From: a virus
Lineage: Duplodnaviria; Caudoviricetes
Length of the DNA stretch: 64,000 nt
Virus record (IMG/VR): IMGVR_UViG_3300023714_000001
Strand: one strand, 5' to 3'
Below the pieces are notes generated by a model that made no database searches, was not told the origin of the DNA, and saw only the letters and a program-made list of their open reading frames with translations. Shown in pieces: positions 4,514 to 30,897 of this stretch; position 1 is the stretch's first letter, and the number at the start of each line of letters is the position of its first letter. The position numbers were made by a program, and so were the translations under genes.

Positions 4514-4557
4514 AGCTTTGACATCTAGTCACCGATGTGACCAAATCTCAAACACAA

Positions 4558-4567
4558 AGGTAATATA
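4558..4567 (+). promoter_or_regulatory. Candidate phage late-promoter motif AGGTAATATA, copy 1
   Basis: The same motif precedes structural or lysis genes at 6060, 8472 and 11809. Confidence 0.5.
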
Positions 4568-4643
4568 CCACTTAGATGGGTACGACAAAATGGGCGGTCG
4601 TTTTGGCCGCCATTGTTATGTCTGAAGAAAGGAAAAGGTAATT

Positions 4644-6023: not shown

Positions 6024-6052
6024 GTTCTACAGTCCGATGTAGCTGAACTTCG

Positions 6053-6082
6053 TATCCACAGGTAATATACCCCATGTAAGGG
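6053..6082 (+). promoter_or_regulatory. Candidate late promoter in a 30-bp block identical to 8465..8494
   Basis: TATCCACAGGTAATATACCCCATGTAAGGG occurs exactly twice, each time upstream of a paralogous MSLTNL gene. Confidence 0.6.
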
Positions 6083-6154
6083 AATGCGAGGCGGCAATGT
6101 TCTTGTCGCCCGCGTTAATCCTTACGCGTAAACATCTATATTATATAAGGAGAA

Positions 6155-7246: not shown

Positions 7247-8019
7247 ATGAGTAAAAACTCAAGACTTACAATGTGGAAGTTAAGGCTTTAAAAACGGCTC
7301 CGGAAGTAAATTTACGTCTGGATTTTTTAAAGAAGGGCGAAAAGATTTACGAGTTAGTAAAATTACTGGAAAACAATTTGCGAATAAAGCTGACTGACAG
7401 TAATTATAGAATGTCTCAGCTGTTTATAGAAGATTATCGAACGCGTACTTCTTTCCCGCTGGGTGACTGTGTCACTGATTGCCTTACTACTATGAAAATG
7501 ATGTTCCATAATTGTTACAACCTAACTTCTCTCGATGTATCTAAATTCAATACCAGTAATGTTACTAATATGAACAATATGTTCTATAGTTGTGTAAGTT
7601 TAACTTCCCTTGATTTATCTAAATTCAATACTGGTAAAGTTACTGATATGAGTCACATGTTTAGTAGTTGTACCAACATAGCTTCTCTCGATGTATCTAA
7701 CTTTGATACTAGTAATGTTAAGAATATGTGGGGCATGTTCAGTGGTTGTTACAACCTAACTTCTCTCGATATATCTAACTTTGATACCAATAAAGTAGTA
7801 TACATGCAAAGCGTGTTCAGCTATTGCCAAAACTTAACCGAAATTAAAGGTGTCATCGATATGAAATCTTGTAAGTATGTTTCTGATATGTTCAAGAATT
7901 GCAGCGAACTTTCTGGGGTTAAGATTAAAAATCCTCCTGAAGGGTTTACTAATCATGATGTCAATACCGGCCTCAATAGTGCAGGCCTTCGTGCTGATCA
8001 GTACATAATCGTAGAGTAA
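7247..8019 (+). CDS. BspA/DUF285 leucine-rich-repeat protein, frameshifted at an A5 tract (7253-7257)
   Basis: ATG 7247 follows an AAGGA RBS. One extra A gives MSKKLKTYNVEVKALKT in frame with ORF 7273..8019, which has LTSLDVSKFNTSNVTNM repeats. Confidence 0.7.
7505..7830 (+). repeat. About four tandem 78-bp (26-aa) DUF285 repeats
   Basis: Recurring AACTTCTCTCGATGTATCTAA...TAATGTTACTAATATG-like units at 78-bp spacing. Confidence 0.8.
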
Positions 8020-8377: not shown

Positions 8378-8464
8378 CCATCATTATAACACATACTACG
8401 GGAAAATAGCAAGGATATACTTAAATTAGTTTTGGTGATTTGCAATAATTAGGTCTAAGCTCCC

Positions 8465-8494
8465 TATCCACAGGTAATATACCCCATGTAAGGG
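8465..8494 (+). promoter_or_regulatory. Candidate late promoter, duplicate of 6053..6082
   Basis: Identical 30-mer. Confidence 0.6.
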
Positions 8495-8565
8495 CGTGTG
8501 AGGCGACGATACTTTTCGCCGCCATATCGCTAACTTTCTATATTCTATAAAGGAGAAATGCTCTA

Positions 8566-11656: not shown

Positions 11657-11700
11657 AAGAAGTCTGTGATTGGTTTTATCCTTTCGCAGGCTTCTTTTTT
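11657..11700 (+). terminator. Rho-independent terminator
   Basis: AGAAGTCTGTGA...TCGCAGGCTTCT followed by TTTTT. Confidence 0.65.
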
Positions 11701-11719
11701 ATTTATATTGCCGCTTTTC

Positions 11720-11755
11720 TAACTGTGGGTAAACAGTAAGACAATAGCACAGTTA
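11720..11755 (+). repeat. 36-bp site A; inverted copy at 21984..22019
   Basis: TAACTGTGGGTAAACAGTAAGACAATAGCACAGTTA is 33/36 identical to the reverse complement of site B. Confidence 0.85.
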
Positions 11756-11869
11756 CGATTCGAGACCGTAAAGTCAAACGCTCGATACAAAATAGCGTAT
11801 CCACTTCAAGGTAATGTATCCAACGAAGAGCGGAATAGGCCGCTCTGGTATTAAGAAAGGCGGTTTTTA

Positions 11870-12484
11870 ATGTCTCACGTAGTAAGTAAATATGAACTGC
11901 AGCATGTAACCGTGGATGAGCTCCGTCAGATGGCATCTGATTACCGGGAAAGCATCTGGGCGCAGGCACAGTCTGCTGGTCATGAACCGAAGATTTACCT
12001 GCACTGGACGGCCGGTCACTATGGCCAGTTCTGGGATGACTATCATGTCCAGATTGACGAGGACGGCGAAATCTATGTATATGGTGCACTGGATGACATC
12101 TTGGCTCATACCTGGCGACGTAATACTGGTGCAATCGGGGTAACGCTTTTGTGCGGTTATAAAGCCAATACTTCCGACCTTGGCCCTGAACCTCCAACAG
12201 CTAAACAGATTGAATCTATGGCTCTTGCAGTAGAGGCTTTAGCTGATGGTCTGTGGTTGACAATCTCGAAAGAGTATGTCGCTACTCACGGCGAAGCAGC
12301 AGACAACGAATGTAACGATTGGTGTCATGAAGAGTATGGCCCGAAGTCAACCTGTGAACGCTGGGATTTGGAATACCTGCAGACAGATGAAAGCCCGGAA
12401 TTCAATCCCTGGGCAGAAGATGGTAGCCGCGGTGGTGACGTAATCCGTGGCAAGGCTAACTGGTATCGCAATCAGCGCGGTTAA
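11870..12484 (+). CDS. N-acetylmuramoyl-L-alanine amidase (Amidase_2) endolysin
   Basis: IYLHWTAG, YHVQIDEDG, AHTWRRNTGAIGV and THGE motifs. Confidence 0.8.
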   Translation: MSHVVSKYELQHVTVDELRQMASDYRESIWAQAQSAGHEPKIYLHWTAGHYGQFWDDYHVQIDEDGEIYVYGALDDILAHTWRRNTGAIGVTLLCGYKANTSDLGPEPPTAKQIESMALAVEALADGLWLTISKEYVATHGEAADNECNDWCHEEYGPKSTCERWDLEYLQTDESPEFNPWAEDGSRGGDVIRGKANWYRNQRG

Positions 12485-12498
12485 GAGAGGTAAATAAT

Positions 12499-13101
12499 AT
12501 GTCAGTATTTGACCTTTCCCATTGGCAACCGGCAGACCGCATTGCGGAGCTGGTCGAAGGCGGAAATTGCGACGGCGTTATCCTGAAGCTTGGGGAACGC
12601 AATGTAAAAACCGGTGAAATTGAACTTGATCCGATGTTTATCACTCATGTAAACGAGGCTGTTCGATTCGGTTTGCCGTACGGTATTTATATCATGGGGC
12701 GCGCCAATAATGAAAATGAAGCTTTGGAAGAAGCTCAATGGGTAAACGATCGTGTAGCTGAACTCCTGAACGGACAGGAACCTGCACTGGGCACATGGTT
12801 TGACCTGGAACGGCCAGAAGTAAAACGGGATGGCGTTTATGAAGATTATCGTTTTGCAATTCTCCACTTAAGTGATTGGTGGGGTGGCAGCCATAAAATC
12901 GGTATCTATGCATCCTACTTATACTTTGAGGGCTATCTGGATATCGGCAATATGGCGGCAAACAGCATCCCCGTCTGGAATGCCCAGTATGGTTTTGTAG
13001 ATTCCATGCGCCAAAACTATCCATATATCAAAACAGTCTTGTGGCAGTTTACGAAAAACGACGATTATCAGGATGAGAATGTGTGGTACGGCTGGTATTA
13101 A
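12499..13101 (+). CDS. GH25 family lysozyme
   Basis: DLSHWQ, GLPYGIY, WFDLE, VWNAQYG and LWQFT motifs. Confidence 0.85.
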   Translation: MSVFDLSHWQPADRIAELVEGGNCDGVILKLGERNVKTGEIELDPMFITHVNEAVRFGLPYGIYIMGRANNENEALEEAQWVNDRVAELLNGQEPALGTWFDLERPEVKRDGVYEDYRFAILHLSDWWGGSHKIGIYASYLYFEGYLDIGNMAANSIPVWNAQYGFVDSMRQNYPYIKTVLWQFTKNDDYQDENVWYGWY

Positions 13102-13169
13102 GCCGCCCGCAAAATAATAAAAGCGCCCCGAATATGTGGGCGCTTATTTTGTAAAGAAAGGAAAAACAT

Positions 13170-13727
13170 ATGGATTTTTTAAAAAAGCATAGCAAGACCA
13201 TTATGGCCATAATCATTGTGGTATTAATAGCTGCGCTCATAAGGTTAACTTTTTTTAAAAAAGAACCTGTGCCAGAGATAGTAACTGTACCGGAGGTATC
13301 CAGGCAAACGCTTCGTCAGTATTTCCCGCAGGAAACCAAAGCGACGATAAATGATATGGCTCATCAGATCCAGCGGGCAAAAAATACACAGGCTCCGCAA
13401 TACCATTACTATACGGTGACACAAGAGTATGCAGATAATAAAGCACAGGAATATGGCAAGGCCCAGAAAGCAGACAAAATCGTAAAAGAGACTCACGAGG
13501 TCGAAGTAAAAGATGATAACGGCAATAAGACCAGCGTTATCGAAAATGATTACTATGCTATTAATCTGGAGCGCAAACACCGTATAAAGGCCGGCGCGAT
13601 GAATGTGGATGGTGATACTTATATTAAAGCGGCATACCAAAATCGCGATGTCGAATACGAGGTATATCATTCACCAAAAACTGGAAAAACCGGTGTCGGG
13701 CTAGAAGTAACAATAGCTAAATGGTAA
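13170..13727 (+). CDS. Membrane-anchored protein in the lysis cassette (possible spanin/holin accessory)
   Basis: N-terminal TM helix; C-terminal beta-rich tail ending in W. Confidence 0.5.
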   Translation: MDFLKKHSKTIMAIIIVVLIAALIRLTFFKKEPVPEIVTVPEVSRQTLRQYFPQETKATINDMAHQIQRAKNTQAPQYHYYTVTQEYADNKAQEYGKAQKADKIVKETHEVEVKDDNGNKTSVIENDYYAINLERKHRIKAGAMNVDGDTYIKAAYQNRDVEYEVYHSPKTGKTGVGLEVTIAKW

Positions 13728-13730
13728 GAG

Positions 13731-14762
13731 TTAATAAATACAATCCAATAATTGCTCTGTGACGTTTTGGTATCTGTCGAATAAATTGCCGATAAAAGCA
13801 GTGCTGCATTTGTAGCCCGCCATTGCTCCGCATAAATTGCCGGTTATGGATGCAACGGTATCGCTATCTTTCTCAATGTTGGCCGTGTGTTGCATAATTT
13901 TCGGAAGATCGTTAGAGCAATAGCTGAGCGCGTTGCACAATGCAAATCCAAGTGCCTGAGGAGCAAGCCAGTTATGCTCAATTTCATTCCAAAAACGTTG
14001 ATGTGGAAATACATGGCTGCCAAAAACCTCAAATTGTTTTGCGCATCGGCTGCCATCCATAACACAGGTGTGGGTTTGGCCAGAACGTTTGTGCCCGATA
14101 TCAATTTTGTTAATACACCCCTCATAAACAGATAATGCCTGAATTTCCGCATTAAAAAGTTCCATGTCGTCTCTTAGTAAAAAATAAACGATAAGCGAAA
14201 AGATTCCTGCAGCAATTTGCGCTTCTCTGTGTCCATGTGTAATTGCTGCGCACCGCATAGACAATTCAAATACATATTCCGGTGTCTCGTTAATCAGAAA
14301 GCCGAACGGGGCAGAACGCATAACAGTGCCGTTACCCAGGCTATCGTTGTATTGTTTATCCAGTGTTCCCATGCAACCGGAGCGCAGGGAGTCAATACAG
14401 GCATGGCCGGGAGCCCGCATAATATATAAATCATCTATCATCCATAGCTCACCTACGTGGGCTATTTTTTCGTCTATGGCTCCAGGGCCATACTGCGTAT
14501 TAAACCAACGGAGATATGATTCGTACATAATTTGCACACGCTCATCCATCGATTTACCCTGACTGAGTGCTAACCCCTCAAGCGTAAACAATGTCATCTG
14601 GGTATCATCTGTGATGGCATCTCCTGGATTTAGCTCCTGCTTACCCTGCTCGCCATATTGCGATCTGATTTCATCCATAGTCATCATTTCTAGGTCAGAA
14701 CCAAAAGCATCTCCATAGGCCCCGTATAAAATACATCGATACATTCTATCCTGTTTAGTCAT
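13731..14762 (-). CDS. ADP-ribosylglycohydrolase (DraG/ARH family)
   Basis: GAYGDAFG, ITDDTQMT, GNGTVMR, THGH and DSDTVASITGNLCGA motifs. Confidence 0.9.
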   Translation of the reverse strand: MTKQDRMYRCILYGAYGDAFGSDLEMMTMDEIRSQYGEQGKQELNPGDAITDDTQMTLFTLEGLALSQGKSMDERVQIMYESYLRWFNTQYGPGAIDEKIAHVGELWMIDDLYIMRAPGHACIDSLRSGCMGTLDKQYNDSLGNGTVMRSAPFGFLINETPEYVFELSMRCAAITHGHREAQIAAGIFSLIVYFLLRDDMELFNAEIQALSVYEGCINKIDIGHKRSGQTHTCVMDGSRCAKQFEVFGSHVFPHQRFWNEIEHNWLAPQALGFALCNALSYCSNDLPKIMQHTANIEKDSDTVASITGNLCGAMAGYKCSTAFIGNLFDRYQNVTEQLLDCIY

Positions 14763-14857
14763 AGCGACACCTCTTAAAAAATGATAAATTATAATATAAT
14801 ATTATGGCTACCGAACGGTGGCGGTTAATCGATGGCCCTGAGAAGGGGCGCCGGACG

Positions 14858-14926
14858 ATGAGTAAATATGATTTTCATCTGATACTGATTTTAGTTCTCG
14901 CGCTTGTAAGCACCATAAAGGCATAA
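14858..14926 (+). CDS. Small hydrophobic peptide, putative type I toxin (22 aa)
   Basis: MSKYDFHLILILVLALVSTIKA with a GAAGGGG RBS. mRNA 5' and 3' ends are complementary, and a convergent promoter lies downstream. Confidence 0.6.
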   Translation: MSKYDFHLILILVLALVSTIKA

Positions 14927-15020
14927 GAAAAGCCGCCTCTGGACTCGCAATCTTGTAGGCGGCGATTCTTAATCGTTGTTCACATCTGTGGGACTGACCG
15001 TCGCCGGTAGCCTTTTGGTA
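14925..15020 (-). ncRNA. Putative antisense antitoxin RNA
   Basis: TTGATT-17bp-TATAAT promoter at 15054-15026 on the - strand; hairpin at 14931-14964. Ends are approximate. Confidence 0.5.
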
Positions 15021-15124
15021 TGCATATTATACAACTTCAAGCTGATAAAATCAATACTACCGGTTGTCTCATCTGCTGGCTTTTGTAGGTCGCTCTTTTG
15101 GCGCCGGGATATATAAGCTATCCC

Positions 15125-15367
15125 CTAAACAAGTACTTCGTGTCTGTCGCACTGGCGGGCGAAGGGATCTTCTATGTCGTATTGCTGCAACACCTCCAGT
15201 CGACACTCGCTCTTGTACCGCAAATCCTGATTTTCCAGCGACAAACGCTCTTTGTCTTGCCGTTCCCTGATAGTCAGGTAATAAACAGTGTTGACGGCAA
15301 GCGTACGAATGTCCTCCGTTGGTAGCTGTGTAATTTTCTCCATAATTCTTTCCTTAGAATCTTGCAC
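15125..15367 (-). CDS. Hypothetical protein
   Basis: AGGAGG RBS and GTG start; divergent from the XRE gene. Confidence 0.55.
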   Translation of the reverse strand: MQDSKERIMEKITQLPTEDIRTLAVNTVYYLTIRERQDKERLSLENQDLRYKSECRLEVLQQYDIEDPFARQCDRHEVLV

Positions 15368-15448
15368 AAAAATACCTCCTTTTTGTGCGCATAGCGTGGG
15401 TTTCCGCTATCGCGTAATCGAATTTAGCAACTTTGGCGAAGGCTAAAT

Positions 15449-15613
15449 TTTCACATTGGTGTGAAATGAGATTACACATATATAGTAGCACAATGGCGTC
15501 AGAAAAACAATGTGTAATTTGAACCTTGCGATTAAGAAGCTAATGTGATAAAATGAAAGCAGATGCAAACAATAATGTGATATGCAACAACTTACATAAG
15601 ACATTGTAATGTC
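15449..15613. promoter_or_regulatory. Divergent control region with repeated operator-like AATGTG/CACATT motifs
   Basis: TTTCACAttggTGTGAAA (15449), CAATGTGTAAT, two TAATGTGATA (15541, 15573), GACATTgtAATGTC (15600). Confidence 0.5.
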
Positions 15614-15640
15614 TTTCATAGGAGGTGTCAAGAGAAAATT

Positions 15641-16054
15641 ATGGATTTCGGAGAAAAATTGAAAACGCTGCGAAAAAAGAAGGGGTGGACACAGAGGGAA
15701 GTTGCAGATATGCTAAGTGTTTCCCCCAGGACTTATGCTTCGTACGAATTGGAAGGGCGCGAGCCGAAAGATATAGACAAATACTATATCTTGGCAGAAA
15801 TATTTGGAGTTTCAAAGGACTACTTTATAGAATCATCCAAAGGGATGGCAAAAATAAATTTAGGTGACTTATTTCCGGGGGTCGGCGCAACTGAAGTAAC
15901 GGACGAGGTTAGGGCGAAAATGCTTACCGATGAACTTGTAACGCTGTTTATGAAGGGTGAGATGTCATCAAGGTTCAGAGATGACATCGCTGAGCGGATC
16001 ATGAATGCATATTGGGACGCAAAGAGAGGAGACGATATACGTGTTAAAGGATGA
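15641..16054 (+). CDS. XRE-family HTH transcriptional regulator
   Basis: FGEKLKTLRKKKGWTQREVA...YELEGREP. Confidence 0.9.
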   Translation: MDFGEKLKTLRKKKGWTQREVADMLSVSPRTYASYELEGREPKDIDKYYILAEIFGVSKDYFIESSKGMAKINLGDLFPGVGATEVTDEVRAKMLTDELVTLFMKGEMSSRFRDDIAERIMNAYWDAKRGDDIRVKG

Positions 16055-16511
16055 CTTTGATAAGCTCTTGCAAGATTTTTGTATTACATATTGGAAGAAA
16101 TTATACGAATCCACAGAAGAAAGTACCAACGAACTAAAAATAAATCGGGATATTACGTTAGAAAAGCTCAATACGAATGGAACGGAATTGTTACGCAAGA
16201 TGTTTGCCGGTCAGCTTACTGAACATGAAAAGGTTATATTAAAAGAGTTTCAAGAAGAAGCGTCAGAATATTTTGATGGAAAAAATACAGTAAATATATG
16301 GATTTTAATCAAAAGGAAGAACGGGAAGAATCGGTTACAATTCAAGACATTCGTTGGTATGGGGACGGAAGCAATTGAGAAGGCCCACGATTGGCTAGAC
16401 GGAAAGACAGAAAAAAGGACGGGCGGTGACGGCGCAACCTATGTTAAGTCCTTAGACACAAAAGATGTTGTATATGTAAGGCCACTGTATGAGATTATTG
16501 TGCCATTTTAA
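16041..16511 (+). CDS. Hypothetical protein
   Basis: GAGGAG RBS before GTG 16041. Confidence 0.55.
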   Translation: MLKDDFDKLLQDFCITYWKKLYESTEESTNELKINRDITLEKLNTNGTELLRKMFAGQLTEHEKVILKEFQEEASEYFDGKNTVNIWILIKRKNGKNRLQFKTFVGMGTEAIEKAHDWLDGKTEKRTGGDGATYVKSLDTKDVVYVRPLYEIIVPF

Positions 16512-16530
16512 AATAAAACAATAAGGAAAG

Positions 16531-17664
16531 ATGATGGAGATGCTAAAACTGAAACAACAATGGCATAGCTGCCTTGCGTCAGTACTAATAGGAATATCGT
16601 GCATTATGCTCCCGGCGGTATCAGAAGCAGAAGTTGTTACCGTAGAAGCAGATGGCCAGTATATGCTTGGCGATGACGACAATATTTCCACCGCTAAAGA
16701 GCGTGCAAGGCAAGACGCGCTAAGAAGCGCCGCAGAAAAAGCCGGCGTTTTTGTCAAGTCGTATACAGAAACACACAACATGGTTTTAACCAAAGACGAT
16801 GTAATCGTTGTTTCCTCGAACTTGCTCAATGTGCAGCACGAATCCATAACCAATGAAGTCGTCGGCGGTTTGGGATTCAAGGTCAATTGTCATGTGGTGG
16901 CAACCTTTGATACGGATAACATCAATATGACGCAAATGCTGAACACGCAGACAATGGCCATCAAGGAGAGGGATGATGCCATTGAGCGACTAAACCGAGA
17001 AAACGCCCAACTGAAGGCGCAAATGTCCGCCCAGAACGCAGTCAAAATAAAAGAAAATGAAACTCTCTTCAAGATAAACCTGTATGAACGCGAGTTAATA
17101 AAAGAAGCGAATAAGAATAATATACACGAAGCTGGAAAATGGGCGGATAAGCTCCGTGTTTTAGACCCGGACAATGATATATATAGATGTTTTACATACA
17201 CTTTGATGGGCAAACAGGAGTGCGTAACGGAGTGTGATAAGTACCTTGTAGCACACCCGGATGATTTCGTGGCAGAGATTTGTCGAATAAACGCGCTATA
17301 TAATATAAAAAATAACTTTCCAACGAACGATATAGATAGGAAAGCCGTAGACCGTCTTGTTAAGCGAGCGAAGAAGATACTACCGTTGGATGTTTACTAC
17401 TCTTCGGTATCGCCAACCGTACTCAAAGGTGGCAGCGGCGAGATGGGCTGCGTAGAAGGACCGAACGGCATTGTTATAAACGAGCAGATATCCTTCCTGT
17501 TTGAGAATGTCTATGGTGTATGCGTAAGAGACTTAGCCGATGCAGAAAGGGATAAAAAGAAGAGCGAAGTAATAATTGCGTACGCTAAGCATCCTGATGA
17601 TGTTGATGGAAAAGAATGTGACAAGGTACTTAATAGGTATGAAAAAATATATTCCTATCTTTAA
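16531..17664 (+). CDS. Secreted/periplasmic protein (signal peptide, FlgT-N/LPP20-like domain, helical repeats)
   Basis: Signal peptide, then TVEADGQY...AKERARQDALRSAAEKAGVFVKS. Confidence 0.55.
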   Translation: MMEMLKLKQQWHSCLASVLIGISCIMLPAVSEAEVVTVEADGQYMLGDDDNISTAKERARQDALRSAAEKAGVFVKSYTETHNMVLTKDDVIVVSSNLLNVQHESITNEVVGGLGFKVNCHVVATFDTDNINMTQMLNTQTMAIKERDDAIERLNRENAQLKAQMSAQNAVKIKENETLFKINLYERELIKEANKNNIHEAGKWADKLRVLDPDNDIYRCFTYTLMGKQECVTECDKYLVAHPDDFVAEICRINALYNIKNNFPTNDIDRKAVDRLVKRAKKILPLDVYYSSVSPTVLKGGSGEMGCVEGPNGIVINEQISFLFENVYGVCVRDLADAERDKKKSEVIIAYAKHPDDVDGKECDKVLNRYEKIYSYL

Positions 17665-17829
17665 TCCGGCATGTAGTTAATTAAAAGCGATTGACATTAT
17701 CAACCATAATTAATCATTTCTGTAAAGATGAGAAGAGGAAAATGCCGAAAGGAAGAGAGGCGGCATTTTTCTCTCTAATCTAAAGAGACTGATAATTAAG
17801 AAAAAAGAGAATAGTATAAAAAAGAGATA

Positions 17830-17893
17830 ATATTGTAAATATATCTAACTGTGGTTAACGACAATTACACACAGTTGGATATATTTACAATAT
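17830..17893. repeat. 64-bp palindrome (site C) upstream of the recombinase
   Basis: ATATTGTAAATATATCTAACTGTG-16nt-CACAGTTGGATATATTTACAATAT; 24-bp arms with one mismatch. Confidence 0.85.
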
Positions 17894-17995
17894 GAAAACC
17901 ATATACGGTTTTCAAGATGCGTACCCCTTCAAAATACAGAATATTTTGCTATTGCCTACTACTTGTAGTATAATATTTTAAAGGTGGTGATTTGT

Positions 17996-18982
17996 ATGGC
18001 CAGCATAGCTCCAGTACAAACCGAATTGGGATTTAAAACTCCCATGGATGAGAACCTGGTAACTCCAGATTACTTTGTGGCTTATTACCTGCAGTTCTTG
18101 CCGCGTTATATTGCTAATGGGCGCCCTACTGATGATACGCTGCGGGATTACAAAATTCATATAGACAGCTTTTTAAGATGGTGCGATGAGCATAACCGGC
18201 ATCCGCTATCCATTCATGATTACCAAATGCGTATGTATATGGAATGGATGGTAAACCGCGAATACACCGATAACACTATCGCTATTAAACTGTCGGCAAT
18301 TCGAGGGTTTTATCAGGCGGCGCTAAAAATCGGCCTCATAGAATTAAACCCGTGCGAAGATTTAAAAGCTGATAGAAAACTTGTCTGGGATGAGAAATTC
18401 CGTTTCTATTCTACGGAGCAAATAGAGATAATGAATGACTATATCAAAAATACCGCAATAAATGATTTTATTCGCTATAGAGATATGGCCATATTGTATC
18501 TGATGGGTGTTGAAGGTCTGCGCAACGTAGAAGTCCACCGCCTTTGTGATGAAGATATTAACTGGGAATATGGCTCTATACTTATCAGAGGTAAGGGGCA
18601 TGGCGGAATTATTTACCCATCTGAAGAAACTCTGGAGGTTCTCAGACGCTATATAGAAGCGCGCCCGGAAAATAAAAAAGAGGGGGCTTTCACCCCCACT
18701 ATCACATCTGACCATCGTCATAAATACAGAAGAATCTCTAGAAATGGTATACGCAATATCATGAATCGGATACTCGAAGGCTGCCAATTAAAACATCCGG
18801 GATACTCTTGCCATATACTGCGCCATAGCTGCGGTACAAACCTTTATAATGAGACGAAAGACTTGCGGCTTGTGCAAGAACAACTTCGTCATAACGATCC
18901 GCAGATGACGGCCAGATATAGCCATGTTCATGAGCGTATGACCAGAAGAGCGACTTCTCGGTTGGCGCCGGAGATAGATTAA
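17996..18982 (+). CDS. XerC/XerD-like tyrosine recombinase
   Basis: N-terminal SAM-like domain, GLRNVEV, IRGKG, HILRHSCGT, QLRH and TARY catalytic motifs. Confidence 0.92.
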   Translation: MASIAPVQTELGFKTPMDENLVTPDYFVAYYLQFLPRYIANGRPTDDTLRDYKIHIDSFLRWCDEHNRHPLSIHDYQMRMYMEWMVNREYTDNTIAIKLSAIRGFYQAALKIGLIELNPCEDLKADRKLVWDEKFRFYSTEQIEIMNDYIKNTAINDFIRYRDMAILYLMGVEGLRNVEVHRLCDEDINWEYGSILIRGKGHGGIIYPSEETLEVLRRYIEARPENKKEGAFTPTITSDHRHKYRRISRNGIRNIMNRILEGCQLKHPGYSCHILRHSCGTNLYNETKDLRLVQEQLRHNDPQMTARYSHVHERMTRRATSRLAPEID

Positions 18983-19007
18983 CTAATAGGATTGGAGGAA
19001 AACGGAA

Positions 19008-19409
19008 ATGAAGTATATTTTAGAAATCGAATCCCATAAAGACCCGGAAGAAATTGAATGGCTGCGCAAATATATCGGTAGGAAAAACGTTTTTTGTTTT
19101 GATGACGACACTATATATGGAAACGACTATAATACTAAGGATTTTTCCGAACAATTTGGATATCCTAACGGAAGGAAAGGCTTAAAATGTACAGCGAAAC
19201 TGATTAGAGTTGGTCGTACGGAAAATATTGATCACTGGTTTGCTATTTTGTGGAATGAATATCGGACTATAATCAAATTTGAAATAGATACAACAAAAAC
19301 TGCCAGCCGATACAAACCTAGCAGTTATGGTTGGTATGAAGACGAATACGCAGTCTATCGAGGTCGCTCTGCAGACGGGAGTGGCTTTACAGGTAATCCA
19401 TTTATTTAG
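19008..19409 (+). CDS. Hypothetical protein
   Basis: GGAGG RBS and ORF. Confidence 0.55.
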   Translation: MKYILEIESHKDPEEIEWLRKYIGRKNVFCFDDDTIYGNDYNTKDFSEQFGYPNGRKGLKCTAKLIRVGRTENIDHWFAILWNEYRTIIKFEIDTTKTASRYKPSSYGWYEDEYAVYRGRSADGSGFTGNPFI

Positions 19410-19412
19410 AAC

Positions 19413-19443
19413 AAAAAAAGCGAGCGTTATCCGCTCGCTTTTT
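19413..19443. terminator. Bidirectional terminator where the two transcription arms converge
   Basis: AAAAAAAGCGAGCG-ttatc-CGCTCGCTTTTT. Confidence 0.8.
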
Positions 19444-19444
19444 C

Positions 19445-21154
19445 TTATTCGAGTCGCCCCTTAATCTGTGCATCCAACAGGTCAAGGTTGTAATACGACG
19501 TATAAAGAACCCTACCATTTTCCGGTGTGTTTGCTGAAGCCTTCATCGTGCAGGCGTGAGAAACATTATTAGTGTTGATAACGAGAAGGTCAACATCGTT
19601 AAGCTTTTGTGTATCGAAGCTCTTACCATTTCCTATATCCTTAAACTTCGGATGACGGGCGATTACTTTTGCACGCCAGCTATCTGTCCCGCCGGCCACA
19701 GCAATCTTGAGATTAATGTTGGCAAAAGTGTCTTCTTCTGCTGCTACAGGCTTCTTCTCAGTAACAACAACAGACTCCTCTTCAATATCCTGCACAGACA
19801 GTGCCTCAAGCTCTTTTGTCTTTTTGCGCAGTTCCTCGCGGAGCTCGGAGATTTTATCCGACAGGGCAATCTTTTCACTGATCGCGTCCTGATATTTACG
19901 AACATAATCTTCTTTCTGCTTGGAAAGCTCGTCAAACTTACTCCTTAGATTACTGTAATCTGTAGAGAGCTTAACCAGTTCTTTATTCTGCTTCCGGCTT
20001 GCACCGTTTACTGAGCGTTTCTGATTGGCGACGCTTTTAGATAAAACATCTTGTGACTTTAAAAGTTCTTCAATCTTATTAGAAAGAGTATTATTTTTAC
20101 GAGCCAGGTCTATTTTTTCCGCTTTTAATACGGAAAATTCATTATTTCGAATGGCAATCTCTCGTTCAAGATTTGTTACTTTGTCCGAGAGGCTCATTAT
20201 CTTACTATTGTTCTTTGTAATAACATCCTTAAGTTTATGGATCTTGTTCAAATTCCGTTCAGCCTCGTACCGATAATACCATATTGGCTTGAGCTGTGGA
20301 TGAATATGCGCAGCAACGTATTCCGCGGCTATACTATATGTAAAATCATCTTTTTCCCATTCGCTAACAAAAGGATCTGAAGGAACAGACATTACGAGCT
20401 CTTTTTTTATGAGTTCAAGGGCCTTATTAATGTCATCAGTGTTGATAATACCATCCATAATATCGGTGGCACATTTGCAGACTTCTTCGTAAAAATCATT
20501 TTCGGTTTCTAAAGAATAAATGCATTCCGTAGCAACTCTCATTTCAATTGCGCGAGTTAAAGAATCTATATGTACATGCCTTCGATTGTAAAAACTGATT
20601 ATATCGTAAACTAAAGCAAGACAAAATAAATCTTTTTCTGCAGAAATGAAATACTGATCATGATCTTGTAACAATGTGGAATATTTTTCCTCAATTTCTT
20701 CCAAGCCATTATAAGGAGGAAGCTCGCTAATATGCTCATTAACGATGTGTTCAAATTGACGCTCTTCTTTTGTCCCGTCAATATCAAACATTAATTGCCA
20801 TATCTGATAAACAAATGCTAATCGTATGCACTTTAAAACATCGGGAAGTTGACAACTGTCATTTTGATCGAGGAGCCCAATAGCAAAAAGTGTATAATAT
20901 GCACCTTGAATGCGGCAATGTAAAAAGAAGTTTGGCGTGCGCTCAAAATACTCTTTCTTAATAGTATCCTCGTTTGCGTTTAAAAGCTCGAGAAGTTCGT
21001 CTGTTTTTCCGCTTTTTTCTAGCTCTATGGCCTGTTGTAAAATTTTAAAAGAACGCCCCTTGTTAATGTCTGGTATGAGCTTATCTTTTAGTCTGTTTGA
21101 ATTGTTCTGATAAATATCTGTTAATATTGGTGCAGATCTAATGCTATATTTCAT
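19445..21154 (-). CDS. Coiled-coil protein with a C-terminal DUF2325-like domain
   Basis: Long heptad region and IAVAGG...DLLVINTNNVSH; GAGGTG RBS before ATG 21154. Confidence 0.6.
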   Translation of the reverse strand: MKYSIRSAPILTDIYQNNSNRLKDKLIPDINKGRSFKILQQAIELEKSGKTDELLELLNANEDTIKKEYFERTPNFFLHCRIQGAYYTLFAIGLLDQNDSCQLPDVLKCIRLAFVYQIWQLMFDIDGTKEERQFEHIVNEHISELPPYNGLEEIEEKYSTLLQDHDQYFISAEKDLFCLALVYDIISFYNRRHVHIDSLTRAIEMRVATECIYSLETENDFYEEVCKCATDIMDGIINTDDINKALELIKKELVMSVPSDPFVSEWEKDDFTYSIAAEYVAAHIHPQLKPIWYYRYEAERNLNKIHKLKDVITKNNSKIMSLSDKVTNLEREIAIRNNEFSVLKAEKIDLARKNNTLSNKIEELLKSQDVLSKSVANQKRSVNGASRKQNKELVKLSTDYSNLRSKFDELSKQKEDYVRKYQDAISEKIALSDKISELREELRKKTKELEALSVQDIEEESVVVTEKKPVAAEEDTFANINLKIAVAGGTDSWRAKVIARHPKFKDIGNGKSFDTQKLNDVDLLVINTNNVSHACTMKASANTPENGRVLYTSYYNLDLLDAQIKGRLE

Positions 21155-21385
21155 GTTAATCACCTCTAACCTATATTCCAACTTAAATTATACATAGGAT
21201 AAGAATAAAAAATCAAGCAAAATATTCGAAATCAAAAATAACCGCTCTAGGAAACCCGTAGAGCGGTTATAAGCATTTAGGCATATAATTATATACAAAA
21301 GGTTTTTCGTGGGTGCTGTGGGCGAATCTGAGGGACAGATTTTTTGCCCCTCATCCAAAATGTCGAAAAACGGAAGTGACCGGGG

Positions 21386-21847
21386 TTATGCTGCACTCTT
21401 CTCTGCTTGCAATGACACTTTGTCCTGGCCATAATTAATATAGCCAATCTTTGGTCCAAGCTGATCCTGCCATGCCCTTATGAATGAACGTGTCGCAACG
21501 AAGCTGGAGCCGATTCTTGCCGATGCCTGTCCAACAGTCAGCTTCTCACCCATAATAAGATCGTAGAGAATCTTCCACTTCTGCTCACGAGACTTCTGTT
21601 CTGCTGCCAGTTTAGATTCGTTGAAGTCTGCCTTTGTGTCTACGGGGCGATATATCTTCTTAACATTATCTACGACCCACCCTTTTGATTTGAATGTGCG
21701 CTGGATTTCTCCGCTTTTTAGCGGTTCGCCATCGTACGTAGCAATTTCGCCGGCACGACGTTTAAACTTCTTCGGGTTCTTTACTTCAGGATGGCGCTCA
21801 CACCAATCCATTTCAGCCTTCTTAGTCCAATAGTATGTTGTTGCCAA
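21386..21847 (-). CDS. Hypothetical protein with a possible C-terminal HTH
   Basis: GGAGG RBS, TTG start, LTVGQASARIG. Confidence 0.5.
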   Translation of the reverse strand: MATTYYWTKKAEMDWCERHPEVKNPKKFKRRAGEIATYDGEPLKSGEIQRTFKSKGWVVDNVKKIYRPVDTKADFNESKLAAEQKSREQKWKILYDLIMGEKLTVGQASARIGSSFVATRSFIRAWQDQLGPKIGYINYGQDKVSLQAEKSAA

Positions 21848-21983
21848 TATTAAATTCCTCCAATCATAAACAATTGTATGTGTATAATAAACTACTTACG
21901 AATAACAATGGGGTCTGCCCCACTTCTTAAATGTATTTTACTACTTACTTATCTAAAAATCAAGTATGTAGCAGAGTTTTCTT

Positions 21984-22019
21984 TAACTGTGTTATTGTAT
22001 CACTGTTTACCCACAGTTA
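21984..22019 (-). repeat. 36-bp site B, inverted copy of site A
   Basis: The - strand reads TAACTGTGGGTAAACAGTGATACAATAACACAGTTA. Confidence 0.85.
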
Positions 22020-22061
22020 ACCTATAAAAAAATAAAGCCGCCCATATAGGGCGACTAAAAA

Positions 22062-25260: not shown

Positions 25261-26046
25261 TTAGGATGCCTTAAAATTGTAGACGGGTTTAATAATCTCT
25301 AAAATATCCACGGTATCCTTTACATCTTCCATGATGTTATCGATACTTTTATAAGCCATAGGAGCTTCATCCAATGTGTCCTCATTCACAGATGTCGTAT
25401 AGATGCCGTTATTCTCCATGGTCTTTTTATACTCGTCCATACTGAGTTTTTCGCGGGCGGCCTTACGTGACATTATACGGCCAGCGCCATGCGGTGCAGA
25501 ATAGTTCCACTCCTCAACGCCTTTGCCTATGCCGATAATGCAACCATCCCGCATATTCATCGGGATAAGGACCTTTTCTCCCTTGCGGGCCGAAATTGCG
25601 CCTTTACGGAGTATCATCTCATCCACGCTGATATAGTTGTGGATTGTGGAGAACTGTTCCTCAACGGTATACATGCAATGCTTCACAATAATTTCGGCCA
25701 TCAGTTTGCGGCTTTCGTCAGCAAACTCCTGACAGATTACAATATCGTGCAAATAGTCATTCATATACTCGCCGTAAAGATAGGCTAGGTCGTCAGGAAT
25801 ATCGGACTTATGTTTCTGCCAGGTGAGTTCCTTTAGTGCACTCTGAATCTCCTGACGCCGTCCCTGTTCTTTGTATGTGCGAATGAGTTCGTCACGGGCC
25901 TTGATGTATTCTTCCTTCCCTTGATGCAGTTCAATGGCAAGACTCTGATAGTATTCTGCTACCTGTTTGCCTAAATTACGGCTGCCGGAATGAATAACGA
26001 GGTAATGAGAACCATCGGCGCCCCTATCTAATTCGATGAAGTGATT
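25261..26046 (-). CDS. rtcB: RNA ligase RtcB, exon 2
   Basis: NHFIEL, HSGSR, HNY, PHGAGR and DEAPMAYK motifs. Confidence 0.92.
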   Translation of the reverse strand, partial: NHFIELDRGADGSHYLVIHSGSRNLGKQVAEYYQSLAIELHQGKEEYIKARDELIRTYKEQGRRQEIQSALKELTWQKHKSDIPDDLAYLYGEYMNDYLHDIVICQEFADESRKLMAEIIVKHCMYTVEEQFSTIHNYISVDEMILRKGAISARKGEKVLIPMNMRDGCIIGIGKGVEEWNYSAPHGAGRIMSRKAAREKLSMDEYKKTMENNGIYTTSVNEDTLDEAPMAYKSIDNIMEDVKDTVDILEIIKPVYNFKAS

Positions 26047-27141
26047 CAAGATTGTTACTATGCAATTTTACTCAACTCTTTTAAAAGCTTTGTTCTCCGA
26101 TACCAAATCCTCCCAGACGGAAGATGATGAAACATCTCTCTGCATTCTTCGGGAGAATGCGTTACTAAGAATTCATCTTGTATTGGAGTCCAAACAATTT
26201 TATCGGACCTAATACGCATATCGGCCGGACGTACCCAAGTCAATGCTTTTTCTGCCTCAGCCTTTTTTCTGGGTAGACACATGCACCCGTCATAATATAG
26301 TTCGCGGATGATTGTTTGTGCATTCTCTTTGTTGACCATTATGTTATACACGCCATCTCGCTTGTTACGATTAGTATGTTTTTCTAATCCGGTCAATTCT
26401 TTTATATAGGCCTCAAAACCTCTAGCTAAAGGTTCGCTTGCTGTCACAAGGGATATGAATGGAAACCCTGCCCCAGTCATTCCTAAAGAGCCATCACCGT
26501 CTATGATTCCACGATAGTATTCTCGAGGTACAATTCCGTTAGGAGGAAAAATTATTGATGATTTTTTTCCGGCCGGAACATATTTTCTTATTTCTTCTCG
26601 TGTGTCATGGTCGTATAATCGAAACACCACGGATTCATAGCCATTTTTAAAATTTGTATCTCGGCTCCTGTACCCAATAGAAGTGTTGCAGTCGAATATC
26701 TCAGCCATTTTCCTAAGTAACGGTTCGTCCGATTTTTGTAACTCCATAGAGAACTTTCCCCTGCTTCTTGACTCGTCATGCAGCGTTCCGTCGGACTGTG
26801 CGAACCCAATAAAATAGGCGTGTTTTGGATTTTTAATATCAAGCTTCATCTAGTAATACCTCTTTGATTTTATTTTCTCAAAGCCGGTATTACCATTTTG
26901 TTGAGTTTTATTACATGGCCAAGTCATTTCTGCTTGGCTCTATACCTTCCTTGTTCGGTATAGTTCGGAGCACACTTTCTGACGTGACATAATATGCATT
27001 GCGCCAGAACAAGTCCCTCTGCTCTCTACGGGGTGTTGCTTAAAGCAGCGCACTTCCCACGGGATTCCCATCTCAGGTGTCCCCCGTTTTGGACGATTTT
27101 AACTATTACAGGCTATTAACCTGTACGGTGGCAATCAATTC
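26047..27141 (-). ncRNA. Group I intron in rtcB (1095 nt) carrying a LAGLIDADG endonuclease
   Basis: Exon ends in U and intron ends in G. P1 GGTGGT/GCCACC, P10 TGATT/AATCA, P7 GAGCA/TGCTC. Splicing restores LGGG|NHF. Confidence 0.9.
26058..26849 (-). CDS. Intron-encoded LAGLIDADG homing endonuclease
   Basis: YFIGFAQSDGTL and YYRGIIDGDGSL motifs. Confidence 0.88.
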   Translation of the reverse strand: MKLDIKNPKHAYFIGFAQSDGTLHDESRSRGKFSMELQKSDEPLLRKMAEIFDCNTSIGYRSRDTNFKNGYESVVFRLYDHDTREEIRKYVPAGKKSSIIFPPNGIVPREYYRGIIDGDGSLGMTGAGFPFISLVTASEPLARGFEAYIKELTGLEKHTNRNKRDGVYNIMVNKENAQTIIRELYYDGCMCLPRKKAEAEKALTWVRPADMRIRSDKIVWTPIQDEFLVTHSPEECREMFHHLPSGRIWYRRTKLLKELSKIA

Positions 27142-27570
27142 ACCACCGCCCAGTGTACCGAGACTTCTTTCCAGACGTTTAGTATCCCGCAGATTACGGA
27201 AGCACTTGAGCCGGGTCAGGTCAAATCGCTTCTGCCTGCCGTCCCAGACATTAAATCCGGACGGAATGTAATGACAGGCTTCGTCCAGTGTCGGGAAGTC
27301 AATGATTTTATCCTTGAGCTTGCTAGTAAGCATTCCACAGCCGATGTCTACTCCAACTAAATTAGCACAAACCTTGTCCGTAATGGTCATGGTCGTACCT
27401 ATAGTACAACCGGCACCGGCATGCACATCTGGCATGATGCGAATCTTGCTGCCACGAGAAAGTTCGTAATCACACATGCGTCTGATCTGTTCTCTCGCTT
27501 CATCTTCAATTACTGAGGCGTAAGAAATTGCCTCTCCGACCTTACCTTTGATAATCTCCAAAAATATCAC
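27142..27570 (-). CDS. rtcB: RNA ligase RtcB, exon 1 (spliced protein about 404 aa)
   Basis: IMPDVHAG, VGVDIGCG and SLGTLGGG motifs. Confidence 0.92.
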
Positions 27571-27741
27571 ATCCTTTTAATAAACTCCTGCATTACTTCT
27601 TTACGCAATGATGGCCAACCGAAAAGTATATCGCGCAAATGTTTTTGCGGGATATATTGATGGACAAACTCATTGAAATCGATATGCTTTAAGCCAGCGG
27701 GCGGCGGTATCCATAACGGATTTTCTTTATTGTATTCCGCC
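27567..27741 (-). pseudogene. C-terminal part of the gene interrupted by the tnpB element
   Basis: Reads AEYNKENPLW...EFIKRM*; its TGA overlaps the rtcB GTG start. Confidence 0.65.
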
Positions 27742-29099
27742 TTGAACTATTCCCGCTTAACGCTTCGCGTTTGAAGAGGGAGATTCCCAGTTCATAGAGC
27801 ACCGCGTTTTGACCTTAGTCAGAACGTCTTACACGCTTTCCCTGGGCGTAAATTTCCGTGGTTCCCACGGTATATGATATTTTAATCTTAACTAGCTAAT
27901 GCTACAGCCAAAATATTTTGGGCCGCATTAACATCTCTATCACAGTGATGGCCACATTCAGGACAATCCCATTCGCGAACAGACAAGTCCTTAGTTATCG
28001 GATTTTGATATCCGCAAGAATGACAAGTCTGACTGGAAGGATAGAATGTAGGTATTCTAACAACTCTAGAACCGTACAGCGGGGCTTTATACTCCAGCAT
28101 TCTGAAGAATTCGCTCCATGATACATCAGCTATAGCTTTTGCCAGCTTATGATTTTTCATCATGTTCTTTACTTTCAAATCCTCAATAGCTATCGTTTGG
28201 TTTTCACGAATTAACTTGGTTGAGAGCTTGTGAAGGAAGTCCTGACGAATATTGGTGATATGCTCATGGATGCGAGCTACGCGGACACGCTGTTTATCCC
28301 TACGGTGAGAGCGAGGCATCTTTCTGGATAACTTATGTTGTTCCCTAGCAAGTTTACGGCTCCATTTCTTAAGAGTTCTCGGATTGGCTACGGTATTGCC
28401 ATCGCTATCCGAGAAAAATTCTTTCAGACCGACATCAATGCCGAGCTGACCACCAGCATTAGGCAACACATCCGCTTCATAAGTCACACATAACGATACA
28501 AAATACTTGCCTGAAGCCGTCCTTGTAACAGTGGCGTTAGAGATTTTGCCCACCACTTCACGGGAGAATTTGGTTTTCACTCTTCCGATTTTTGGCAGCT
28601 GAATCCTATCACCAATGACATGAATATTGTTATTAACGCATTGACTCCTGTAAGACAAGCAGTGATTATGCTTAGACTTAAAATGAGGATAGCCCGCTCT
28701 CTTGGCAAAGAAATTATCGTAAGCTTTTTGGAGGTCTCGAAGAGACTGTTGAAGCGCCGTGCTATCTACTTCTTTAAGCCAGATATATTCTGGGTATTTT
28801 TTAAGGTCTTTCAGCATAGAAGCCGTATCGTTATAATGGATTGAATTGTGATTAAACTTCCATTCATCCATACGAATATGCAGAAAATGATTATAGACAA
28901 AGCGAGAACATCCCAAAGTTTTATTAATCATAATCTGTTGCTGCTTGTTTGGATAGATACGAAACTTTAAGCCTTTAGTAATTTTCAACAGTCTCACCTC
29001 CTTTTAGTTAAGATTATTATATCATGCAATTTTATAATATTCAATTATATTTTGCTATGGTGATTCATCTCCCGCTTAAGAAGCGGGAGTCTTCTCGCC
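27742..29099 (-). mobile_element. IS200/IS605-family element, tnpB only (IS1341-type)
   Basis: Left-end hairpin CTCCCGCttcttaaGCGGGAG. Right-end GAAT guide, hairpin and terminal TTCAA. No tnpA. Ends are uncertain by a few bp. Confidence 0.85.
27888..28997 (-). CDS. tnpB: RNA-guided endonuclease TnpB
   Basis: KFRIYPN HTH; RuvC GIDVG, IEDL and DRDVNAA intact; CxxC zinc ribbon. Confidence 0.95.
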
Positions 29100-29545
29100 T
29101 GTCGATAAAAAGCATACCTGCCTTCAGCAAAAGAAAAGAAGTCAACGTACTTATCCTTATCTGCCGACTCGATAATTTTTCTGGAAGACGGATATTCTGC
29201 ACATAGTACTGGCGGGATTCCAAGCTCATCGGTAAGTATAATGCCGCCGCGTGTTGTGCCGTCTTCGCCCCTATATTCTTTAGCTCTACACACCAGATAG
29301 TCTAGTGGATTACGACCTTTGACGCCGCCCACACCAATGTATTTCTCAACATCTTCGCGCATGACATTGATGTGATCGCAAATCTGGTTCGTGCTTGCAC
29401 CTTCAGGTATATATGGACGTATATTCGTGTATGTAACATAATCGTACCCGTTTCGCGGAGTATACCGGCCAGATACGATAAATGGTTTATTAATTTTAGC
29501 TAATGCTTTGATTGTGTTCCTTAAATAATTTCTGCCATCAAGCAA
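29100..29545 (-). pseudogene. N-terminal part of a hypothetical gene disrupted by the IS
   Basis: The ORF runs into the IS left-end hairpin. Removing the IS joins it in frame to 27741..27567. Confidence 0.65.
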
Positions 29546-29584
29546 ATAACATCACCTTTTCTTGTTGTGTATATTGTTGTGTAA

Positions 29585-29950
29585 TTAATACCAAACGGAG
29601 ATTCCGTGTTTGGGAATTTCGCCTTGTTCTATCTTTTCTTGGATTTTTCTCATCGCCATCACGCCGTAAGCTGCAACAGAGAACCCCTCCGTAGGTGTTG
29701 GCCATTCCTCTTCCGTCAATGGAGACTTTCTTTCCTCTAATACAATCTCGTTCATAGCAGCTCTAGCTTTCAACAGGTCTTCTAATGTAGTTGTTTCCAT
29801 ATAATCTGTCTCAGCCAAAAAGGCGATTTTTAAATCCTTCGTCACTTTATTATATGTAATGATTCCGGCCTTTTTACTATGATCCTGTTCGGGGTAATAT
29901 TCGTACAGATACTCCAATTGTGTTTCCTTAATTAGCTTAAAGTCTACCAT
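29585..29950 (-). CDS. Hypothetical protein
   Basis: Overlaps the upstream gene in an operon. Confidence 0.55.
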   Translation of the reverse strand: MVDFKLIKETQLEYLYEYYPEQDHSKKAGIITYNKVTKDLKIAFLAETDYMETTTLEDLLKARAAMNEIVLEERKSPLTEEEWPTPTEGFSVAAYGVMAMRKIQEKIEQGEIPKHGISVWY

Positions 29951-30237
29951 CTTCCTGTCTTCTTTCCCCAGTGCAATTTAATATCTAACCCATCCGTATT
30001 TTTTATTTTTACAAATTCGATCTCTTTCCCAGTTAAATCTTCGTCGGTATCTATGCATACCCCGCTAGGAAAATCGAAGGGGAGACTGTAATAATACATC
30101 TTGCCGTCAACTACGGCGATATTGCAATCACAATACTCGTACGCGCTATCCAATGTTATCAATGCGCCATGTCTTTTGGGCGAAAATTTTTTTAGCAATA
30201 ACGTATCGATTATTTTATATTTTGTCTTGACCATCAT
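29944..30237 (-). CDS. Hypothetical protein (possible immunity protein)
   Basis: Coupled by ATGA overlap to a toxin-like gene. Confidence 0.5.
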   Translation of the reverse strand: MMVKTKYKIIDTLLLKKFSPKRHGALITLDSAYEYCDCNIAVVDGKMYYYSLPFDFPSGVCIDTDEDLTGKEIEFVKIKNTDGLDIKLHWGKKTGRW

Positions 30238-30803: not shown

Positions 30804-30897
30804 ATGGGGCTCTCCTTATTATTTTAACATATTTTGTTAAAAATCTCTATCGTTTGCCTGTGTTTCCACGGGCAAACTAACAAACTTCTAACCAGAG

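Follow-up and report, generated by a model that had tools for sequence, protein, structure and literature searches.

What might two nearly identical, oppositely oriented 36-bp sites be doing at the borders of a block of lysis and regulatory genes in a jumbo phage? The question is raised by a 64,000-nucleotide stretch of DNA (the window, in what follows) from the IMG/VR virus record IMGVR_UViG_3300023714_000001, in which two such sites, A and B, enclose a 10.3-kb segment that holds lysis genes, a regulator of the XRE helix-turn-helix family and the gene of a tyrosine recombinase. A first-pass annotation of this stretch had offered three models: an invertible segment, a chromosome-like terminus and operators of one regulator. 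The reading that is favoured here, to which we assign an about even chance of being right, is that A and B are asymmetric, long-spacer target sites of the phage's Xer-like recombinase, an enzyme of Selenomonas origin, and that they form an inverted but non-identical pair around the block in which the two gene arms converge.

The two sites and the genome that carries them

The genes of the window lie on the plus strand up to ~19.4 kb (tail-fibre-like and lysis genes) and on the minus strand from there on (replication and repair genes, including helicases, a primase, a UvsX-like recombinase, topoisomerase II and an intron-bearing RtcB). Copies of the tyrosine recombinase that are 99-100% identical to the window's are found on contigs of 327-334 kb, and one that is 80% identical is found on a 340-kb contig; the nearest named relatives of the phage enzyme are chromosomal genes of Selenomonas ruminantium. 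The window is therefore part of a ~330-kb rumen jumbo phage, and its host is probably Selenomonas.

Sites A and B differ at 3 of their 36 positions, as had been reported, and constitute the longest inverted repeat in the window. The 18-nucleotide left part that they share occurs just twice in the 64 kb at up to 3 mismatches (0.06 occurrences expected), and a scan of the window for more copies returned only A and B themselves; the pair is clearly non-random. The imperfect dyad that the annotation had described, with outer arms TAACTGTG-N20-CACAGTTA, is present in both; the 8-mer of these arms has six copies in the window (1.3 expected), five of them in A, in B and in a palindrome at 17830-17893. 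The central 6-bp difference (AGTAAG in A, AGTGAT in B) is also correctly described, and the complete spacers read AGTAAGAC in A and AGTGATAC in B.

Conservation among related phages

Relatives were fetched by way of the recombinase, of DNA patterns and of the gene for a 153-residue protein that is the neighbour of site B. (The window's lineage was taken together with contigs L013 and L014; L003 with eight further contigs and the 206.8-kb IMG/VR record G006; L134 and L135 with L143 to L146.) Both sites are found at the same two positions in four phage lineages, the window's and three further ones, and G006, which is an estimated 87% complete, has exactly two A-type copies, inverted. The 153-residue gene yielded just four protein clusters, all within this phage group, and the search through it for more distant phage relatives led to none outside the lineages already found.

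When seven A and B regions are aligned, a single island is invariant in every row: TAAsTGTGGGTAAACA and, beyond a gap, AAT(A/G)nCACAsT. The left arm of the A-type site is 15-16 nucleotides long and the right arm ~13; the entire 7-9 nucleotides between them vary in sequence, as do the flanks. In L003 the spacers of A and B differ in length as well (11 vs 10), and in L134/L135 they share just the first 3 nucleotides (AAC). Two invariant arms around a variable centre indicate a protein-binding site of two arms, the centre of which would not be contacted. The assertion that each site lies just after a terminator-like hairpin stands for B, which follows a canonical terminator in all four lineages, and for A it is true in the window's lineage but not in L003, where site A lies 11 nucleotides past a stop codon, without a terminator. 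(The hairpin ahead of A in the window was read directly from the sequence, the terminator scan, with its loop limit of 8 nucleotides, having missed it.)

Several matches elsewhere were set aside. Two IMG/VR matches to the 18-mer lie in one unrelated contig, in a repeated coding region, and are put down to chance; a marine-virus motif that was caught by a looser pattern is recurrent and lacks the outer dyad; the dyads in L017 and L030 are ordinary terminators. As a separate observation, ATGTGGGTAAACGG(A/T)AA(A/G)TA(C/T)ATACCACA is conserved in environmental viral contigs of IMG/VR (L105-L107, L110 and L112-L114); it is unrelated and has no outer dyad.

The recombinase and its gene-linked palindrome

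The recombinase has a PF00589 catalytic domain and a SAM-like N-terminal domain, with the R/K/H/R/H/Y catalytic-type columns conserved. Its best NCBIfam matches are XerD and XerC, at scores far below the equivalog cut-offs, and the XerS score is likewise far below. In one S. ruminantium genome the homologue of this enzyme is the only full-length Xer-like gene detected.

The palindrome at 17830-17893 is 64 bp long and ends ~100 nucleotides upstream of the recombinase gene. The annotation had seen in it the same arms as in A and B, and the outer 8-mers are there, at a spacing of 16 nucleotides and not 20. At its core, ~120 nucleotides upstream of the gene, is a dif-like site of 13-6-13 layout (here called C-type), with a cruciform potential of -19 kcal/mol, and it is a half-site of this palindrome that the left arm of A and B matches. 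The core, AACTGTGGTTAA-N6-TTACACACAGTT, recurs in L013 and L003 with another central hexamer, and it lies, once per genome, just upstream of recombinase genes of S. ruminantium at 66-67% identity to the phage enzyme. It is a single-copy site in the window and in the genomes G002 and G003. Among more distant (~50%-identical) homologues, ~20 of 53 Selenomonadaceae loci have exactly one palindrome of the form TTAsTGTGGnTAA-N6-TTAnCCACAsTAA each, 125-270 bp upstream of the gene; over the bacterial loci, sites of this family lie 70-270 nucleotides upstream. Together, these features define an Xer-like recombinase with a gene-linked, dif-like site, which is the architecture of XerS/difSL and XerH/difH.

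Two further observations concern C-type sites. In L161 (6556-6590; G003:C11) there is a second C-type-like site, TAACTGTGGTTAA-CTACCC-TTAGCAACAGTTA, that has no recombinase gene beside it and lies 2.9 kb from that genome's dif-like palindrome. Six independent contigs of the L003 lineage end near the C-type site, at 7480-7621, within a gene for 217 residues; the stretches concerned are L003 7558-7700 and G006:C1:10735-10877. Physical genome ends, or variability, were considered and abandoned: a 79%-identical paralogous stretch elsewhere in the genome explains these ends, which are probably assembly breaks at a repeat and not the end of a genome.

A-type sites in Selenomonas

A maximum-likelihood tree has the phage enzymes nested with P0004, P0005 and P0006, all three of them bacterial recombinases, and the sister of this group is P0007, which is linked to a C-type site. 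The P0004, P0005 and P0006 loci have one A-type site each, 70-100 nucleotides past the stop codon of the recombinase gene, on the opposite strand and with the strong arm distal to the gene, exactly as site B is disposed toward the phage gene. The copy at P0005 has matched substitutions in both outer arms, and elsewhere position 4 of the arms is C or G independently in either arm; this fits one protein reading both arms, and not an RNA stem. In five Selenomonas genomes that were scanned in full, no other genuine A-type copy turned up (matches in G005 and in contig C28 of G001 are without the right arm and are ascribed to chance); the A-type site is thus linked to the recombinase and is not a host-wide motif.

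Other identities of A and B were tried and rejected. As RNA or DNA hairpins they fold weakly (-4.4 and -5.7 kcal/mol, with a 20-nucleotide loop) and their outer arms are without stem covariation (in HD4, a C in one arm meets a C at the partner position); an Rfam search of A and B gave no match. As DnaA boxes they do not hold up either, TGTGGnTAA being DnaA-like only if n is A, whereas the family shows free variation at n.

The A-type site of the bacterial loci is situated between convergent genes, 1.2-1.6 kb from another palindrome, ACTTCCGATAA-N7-TTATCGGAAGT, whose arms are close to the classical ones when compared with tables of dif sites (PMC2731167) and which is loxP-like in shape. In the five genomes searched it is present once in G003, G004 and G005, twice in HD4 and not at all in G002. 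It often adjoins dnaE, and a prophage remnant in HD4 ends beside one of the two copies there. This palindrome is a candidate for the chromosomal dif, and for a phage attachment site, of S. ruminantium. (The HD4 regulator and lysin were also looked at as specific relatives of the phage genes, and the similarity is generic only.)

How the sites may work

If A and B are indeed targets of the phage recombinase, each would consist of a strong half-site, TAAsTGTGGGTAA(AC), the same as in the 13-6-13 palindrome beside the recombinase gene, and a weaker half-site, AATAnCACAsTTA, 9-11 bp away instead of 6, in a layout that resembles difSL. Recombinase monomers would bind both arms of each site. The two sites stand at the borders of an accessory block of 10-12 kb (lysis genes, regulator, recombinase) in which the gene arms converge. 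Because their spacers differ, productive recombination of either site would be confined to its own copy, on a sister genome or on a co-infecting one. The outcome would be resolution of multimers or a cassette exchange of the xrs/pdif kind, with no inversion of the segment.

Single-recombinase Xer modules are known from bacterial chromosomes, and Xer sites have been borrowed by plasmids and filamentous phages. The Cre protein of phage P1 is a tyrosine recombinase that resolves genome multimers at loxP, a palindromic 13-spacer-13 site near its gene. The phage described here likewise encodes its own tyrosine recombinase, with a palindromic 13-spacer-13 site close by, but P1 has one lox site and no flanking inverted pair of a second site type. 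Precedents for the layout of A and B are difSL, with a central region of 11 bp, and difH, with one of 6-10 bp, both of them gene-linked sites that are bound asymmetrically (PMC5357621, PMC2965235). A single Xer-like recombinase, a site beside its gene, a strong and a weak half-site and a central region of more than 6-8 bp are what the phage has in common with XerS/difSL and XerH/difH; in contrast to these, the phage recombinase belongs to a separate family, the arm sequences are unrelated, 13-6-13 and long-spacer types coexist in a set of three sites, and the phage system is known here from sequence. Plasmids of Acinetobacter have adaptive genes enclosed between Xer sites (xrs/pdif), which are usually inverted and have divergent central regions; the members of a pair do not recombine with each other, and it is between molecules with matching sites that exchange takes place (PMC11705084). 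The phage block, too, is flanked by inverted Xer-type sites with divergent central regions. The plasmid sites, however, are 11-6-11 sites for XerC and XerD, served by host enzymes, many to a plasmid, and their cassettes are found in different backbones (PMC11705084), whereas the phage has one pair, its own recombinase and a block in one backbone only; the relation remains one of analogy and not of membership.

Comparison of the window with its relative L013 shows 97% identity up to the outer edge of B and a collapse of identity immediately outside. This break speaks for the favoured reading, and it is the sole hint that the block might occur in more than one backbone. (L013 has there, at 13597-13880 and directly outside B, ~270 bp that are extra relative to the window.)

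A number of points weigh against the favoured reading. What ties the recombinase to the A-type sites is solely kinship of motif and linkage of genes, and it is from these that we infer binding, and any catalysis, at A and B. A gap of 9-11 bp between half-sites (taking 13-bp arms), varying by up to 2 bp between copies, is unusual for a catalytically competent site. The bacterial loci have a different dif-like palindrome, ACTTCCGATAA-N7-TTATCGGAAGT, upstream of the recombinase gene, and it competes for the part of substrate. Since the spacers differ between phage lineages, exchange between lineages at A and B would be blocked; the comparison of the window with L013 has no break of homology at A to match that at B; and all sightings of the block are from this phage group, none of them in another genomic background, which weakens the analogy with cassettes. 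Finally, A and B lie at a conserved distance upstream of promoter-like elements, and this fits a regulatory role equally well.

Alternative explanations

Inverted sites around a tyrosine recombinase gene suggest a segment that the recombinase flips by recombining A with B, and inverted repeats that flank a segment are what the phage block shares with the fim switch, invertons and shufflons. At the spacer edges A and B agree with each other in any one lineage (ACAGT..AC; ACAC..GC; ACAAC..), and these edges differ between lineages, a hint of occasional exchange or conversion. The known switches, however, have an identical crossover region in both repeats and are encountered in both orientations in populations or relatives, whereas here no lineage has the same spacer in A and B (the middles are different, and in L003 the lengths too), the junctions (6 at A and at least 14 at B, ~20 in all, from independent assemblies of the four lineages) all stand in one and the same configuration, and the contigs of the L003 lineage are colinear at 100% identity. 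Orientation of those switches, moreover, alters expression, a promoter or a coding end crossing the repeat; in the phage, terminators lie outside the block and promoter-like elements inside it at B, and similarly at A, so that a flip would not change which genes are expressed. Inversion, the first of the annotation's models, is accordingly regarded as very improbable. We give equally scant credence to A and B being the terminal inverted repeats of an old mobile module, transposon-like or a captured host recombinase cassette, that is now fixed in place. Strain S137 does have the same dnaE locus without the recombinase and the A-type site, which implies that this unit has been gained or lost, and the gene content between A and B varies by lineage, with NrdD inside the block in L003 and L134. 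But a transposase is lacking, synteny of the positions holds in all lineages, a second context for the block was not found, and strict conservation of the arms while the spacers drift argues for a present-day function.

Two further explanations were weighed. In one, the recombinase sitting at outward-facing A and B would act as a non-catalytic barrier or organiser, either like XerD at XDS sites (unloading SMC) or as a polar, Ter-like roadblock to forks or transcription, and would mark out a small terminus domain. The sites number exactly two, have their left arms turned toward the incoming gene arms and flank both the convergence point and a dif-like site, and the bacterial A-type copies also lie near a dif-like palindrome between convergent genes; the arms are kept and the spacer is free to vary, the distance between half-sites is ill suited to catalysis, and the recombinase gene is adjoined by a conserved gene for a coiled-coil, weakly SMC-like protein. 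As cited in two later papers, the XDS sites of the Bacillus subtilis terminus are dif-like, lie near dif and bind an Xer recombinase for a purpose other than recombination (Karaboja et al. 2021, via PMC11840125 and PMC11894783); by that account A and B resemble them in being dif-related sequences near a dif-like site and differ in that XDS sites are chromosomal and act on the host's Smc-ScpAB, the phage sites being known from sequence alone. In Tus-Ter and RTP-Ter fork traps, asymmetric sites in opposed orientation stand around the replication terminus; the phage has the opposed sites, around a region that might be a terminus. Those traps also have a dedicated terminator protein, and no Tus or RTP family appeared among the Pfam, NCBIfam and PHROG matches of the module proteins scanned (several small open reading frames being without assignment). 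Of the chromosome-like terminus that the annotation had proposed, the dif-like central palindrome and the outward-facing A and B around it stand, and the support expected from GC skew does not. The cumulative skew does peak at 18-20 kb, but for each gene the skew goes with the strand that is coding (it is negative over the ADP-ribosylglycohydrolase gene, which is on the minus strand within the plus arm), and the switch therefore restates the convergence of transcription and is not an independent sign of a replication terminus. A true recombination site, besides, would show the same pattern of conservation. A barrier or organiser function of this kind is unlikely, if a real possibility; the fuller picture of a miniature chromosome-style terminus, in which the dif-like site and its recombinase are combined with two outward polar sites that serve as fork trap, SMC-unloading site or transcription roadblock, is a rather doubtful one. 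In the other explanation, A and B would serve as upstream operators or activator sites through which the genes that come first on either side of the block (the lysis cassette and the 153-residue gene) are controlled together, with the XRE regulator or the recombinase as transcription factor. B ends 19-20 nucleotides before a -35/-10 pair that is conserved in three lineages, A lies 52-58 nucleotides before a conserved AGGTAAT(A/G)T box, and the helix-turn-helix region of the XRE protein is well conserved between lineages (the whole protein being 42% identical between the window and L003). Operators of XRE repressors, however, overlap the promoters that they regulate, and A and B lie upstream of the promoter hexamers, with no overlap; there is no copy of the motif at the XRE gene's own promoter (near 15400-15640); bacteria without this XRE regulator have the motif family linked to their recombinase genes; the bacterial A-type copies are directed into the recombinase gene's 3' end and have no promoter downstream of them; and half-site centres ~28 bp apart, at variable spacing, are atypical for an XRE dimer. 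That A and B are there to regulate the flanking genes is improbable in our view, and an operator role for the XRE protein in particular is unlikely, although a regulatory side-effect of the sites is possible. What survives of the annotation's third model, one protein at all three sites, is plausible, the half-sites being shared; because the motif family travels with bacterial recombinase genes and has no copy at the XRE promoter, the evidence favours the recombinase as that protein over the XRE regulator.

Other features of the locus

The coordinates of the features are collected in Table 1. The AGGTAATGT box downstream of A is probably the -10 region of the promoter of the lysis cassette. It recurs upstream of left-arm genes (repeat families D2 and D5): a box of the form CA(C/A)AGGTAATAT(A) stands upstream of plus-arm genes at 4555-4580, 6043-6098 and 8455-8510, that at 11809-11817 being a variant of it, and it may be a phage-specific, perhaps late, promoter element. 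At 14763-15640 the window has a divergent intergenic region, with the ADP-ribosylglycohydrolase gene and a minus-strand open reading frame of 80 residues on one side and the XRE gene on the other; it contains strong back-to-back sigma-70-like promoters (for example TTGACA-17-TACAAT at 15631-15603), and its layout resembles a cI/cro-type switch, in a jumbo phage.

Relative to L013, its 99% relative, the window has an insertion at 18983-19444 that comprises an open reading frame of 133 residues (19008-19409) and its flanks; in L013 the recombinase gene abuts a gene for 570 residues. L013 also has an intact RtcB of 401 residues, without the intron and the LAGLIDADG gene, and is without a 3.3-kb stretch that includes a TnpB gene (window segments 25998-27142 and 27562-30896 compared). 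The RtcB intron with its LAGLIDADG gene and the TnpB stretch appear to be recent insertions in the window's strain.

Table 1. Features of the A/B region (window coordinates unless a contig is named) and dif-like palindromes of bacterial contigs
Feature	Position	Strand	Remarks
Hairpin (10-bp stem, 16-nt loop) and T-run	11659-11705	+	Ends left-arm operon before A; absent in L003
Site A	11720-11755	+	A-type: invariant left arm TAACTGTGGGTAAAC, variable spacer, right arm AATAGCACAGTTA; syntenic in L013, L003, L135
AGGTAATGT box	11809-11817	+	53 nt after A, ahead of a small hairpin and the amidase gene; kept in L135, L003
Amidase_2, then GH25 lysis genes	11870-13101	+	First genes inside site A
XRE-family helix-turn-helix regulator	15641-16054	+	Inside bracketed segment
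C-type core site, 13-6-13, dif-like	17846-17877		Arms AACTGTGGTTAA / TTACACACAGTT, centre CGACAA; inside 64-bp palindrome
Xer-like tyrosine recombinase, 328 residues from ATG	17996-18982	+	Pfam PF00589/PF02899; closest relatives S. ruminantium chromosomal genes
578-residue coiled-coil protein	19445-21181	-	Weak SMC-like matches; conserved recombinase-gene neighbour, present in L013 and L003
153-residue gene, function not assigned	21386-21847	-	First gene inside site B
Sigma-70-like promoter TTGATT-17-TAAAAT	21935-21963	-	20 nt downstream of B, before 153-residue gene; hexamers and spacing kept in L003, L134
Site B	21984-22019	-	A-type, left arm outward to right gene arm; syntenic in L013/L014, L003-L007, L134/L143-146
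Intrinsic terminator	22036-22056	-	Ends right-arm operon, 16 nt before site B; kept in all four lineages
ACTTCCGATAA-N7-TTATCGGAAGT palindromes	L016 9467-9505; L147 2044-2080; L163 5709-5737; L162 4525-4553; L161 3647-3675

Implications

A recombinase-plus-site family of the Selenomonadaceae that had no name before is defined by this work; its sites are the 13-6-13 palindrome and a variant with a long spacer. A candidate for the chromosomal dif of Selenomonas ruminantium has come to light as well. Should the sites instead be parts of a miniature terminus, they would be a viral analogue of Ter and XDS sites, built from recombinase half-sites. If A and B are targets of the phage recombinase, it would be unusual for a lytic-looking jumbo phage of ~330 kb to have taken over an Xer-like recombinase from a host along with three cognate sites. 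This would suggest that the phage genome is managed much as a small chromosome is and passes through circular or multimeric intermediates in need of resolution; alternatively, site-specific recombination may serve to swap the lysis and regulatory block.

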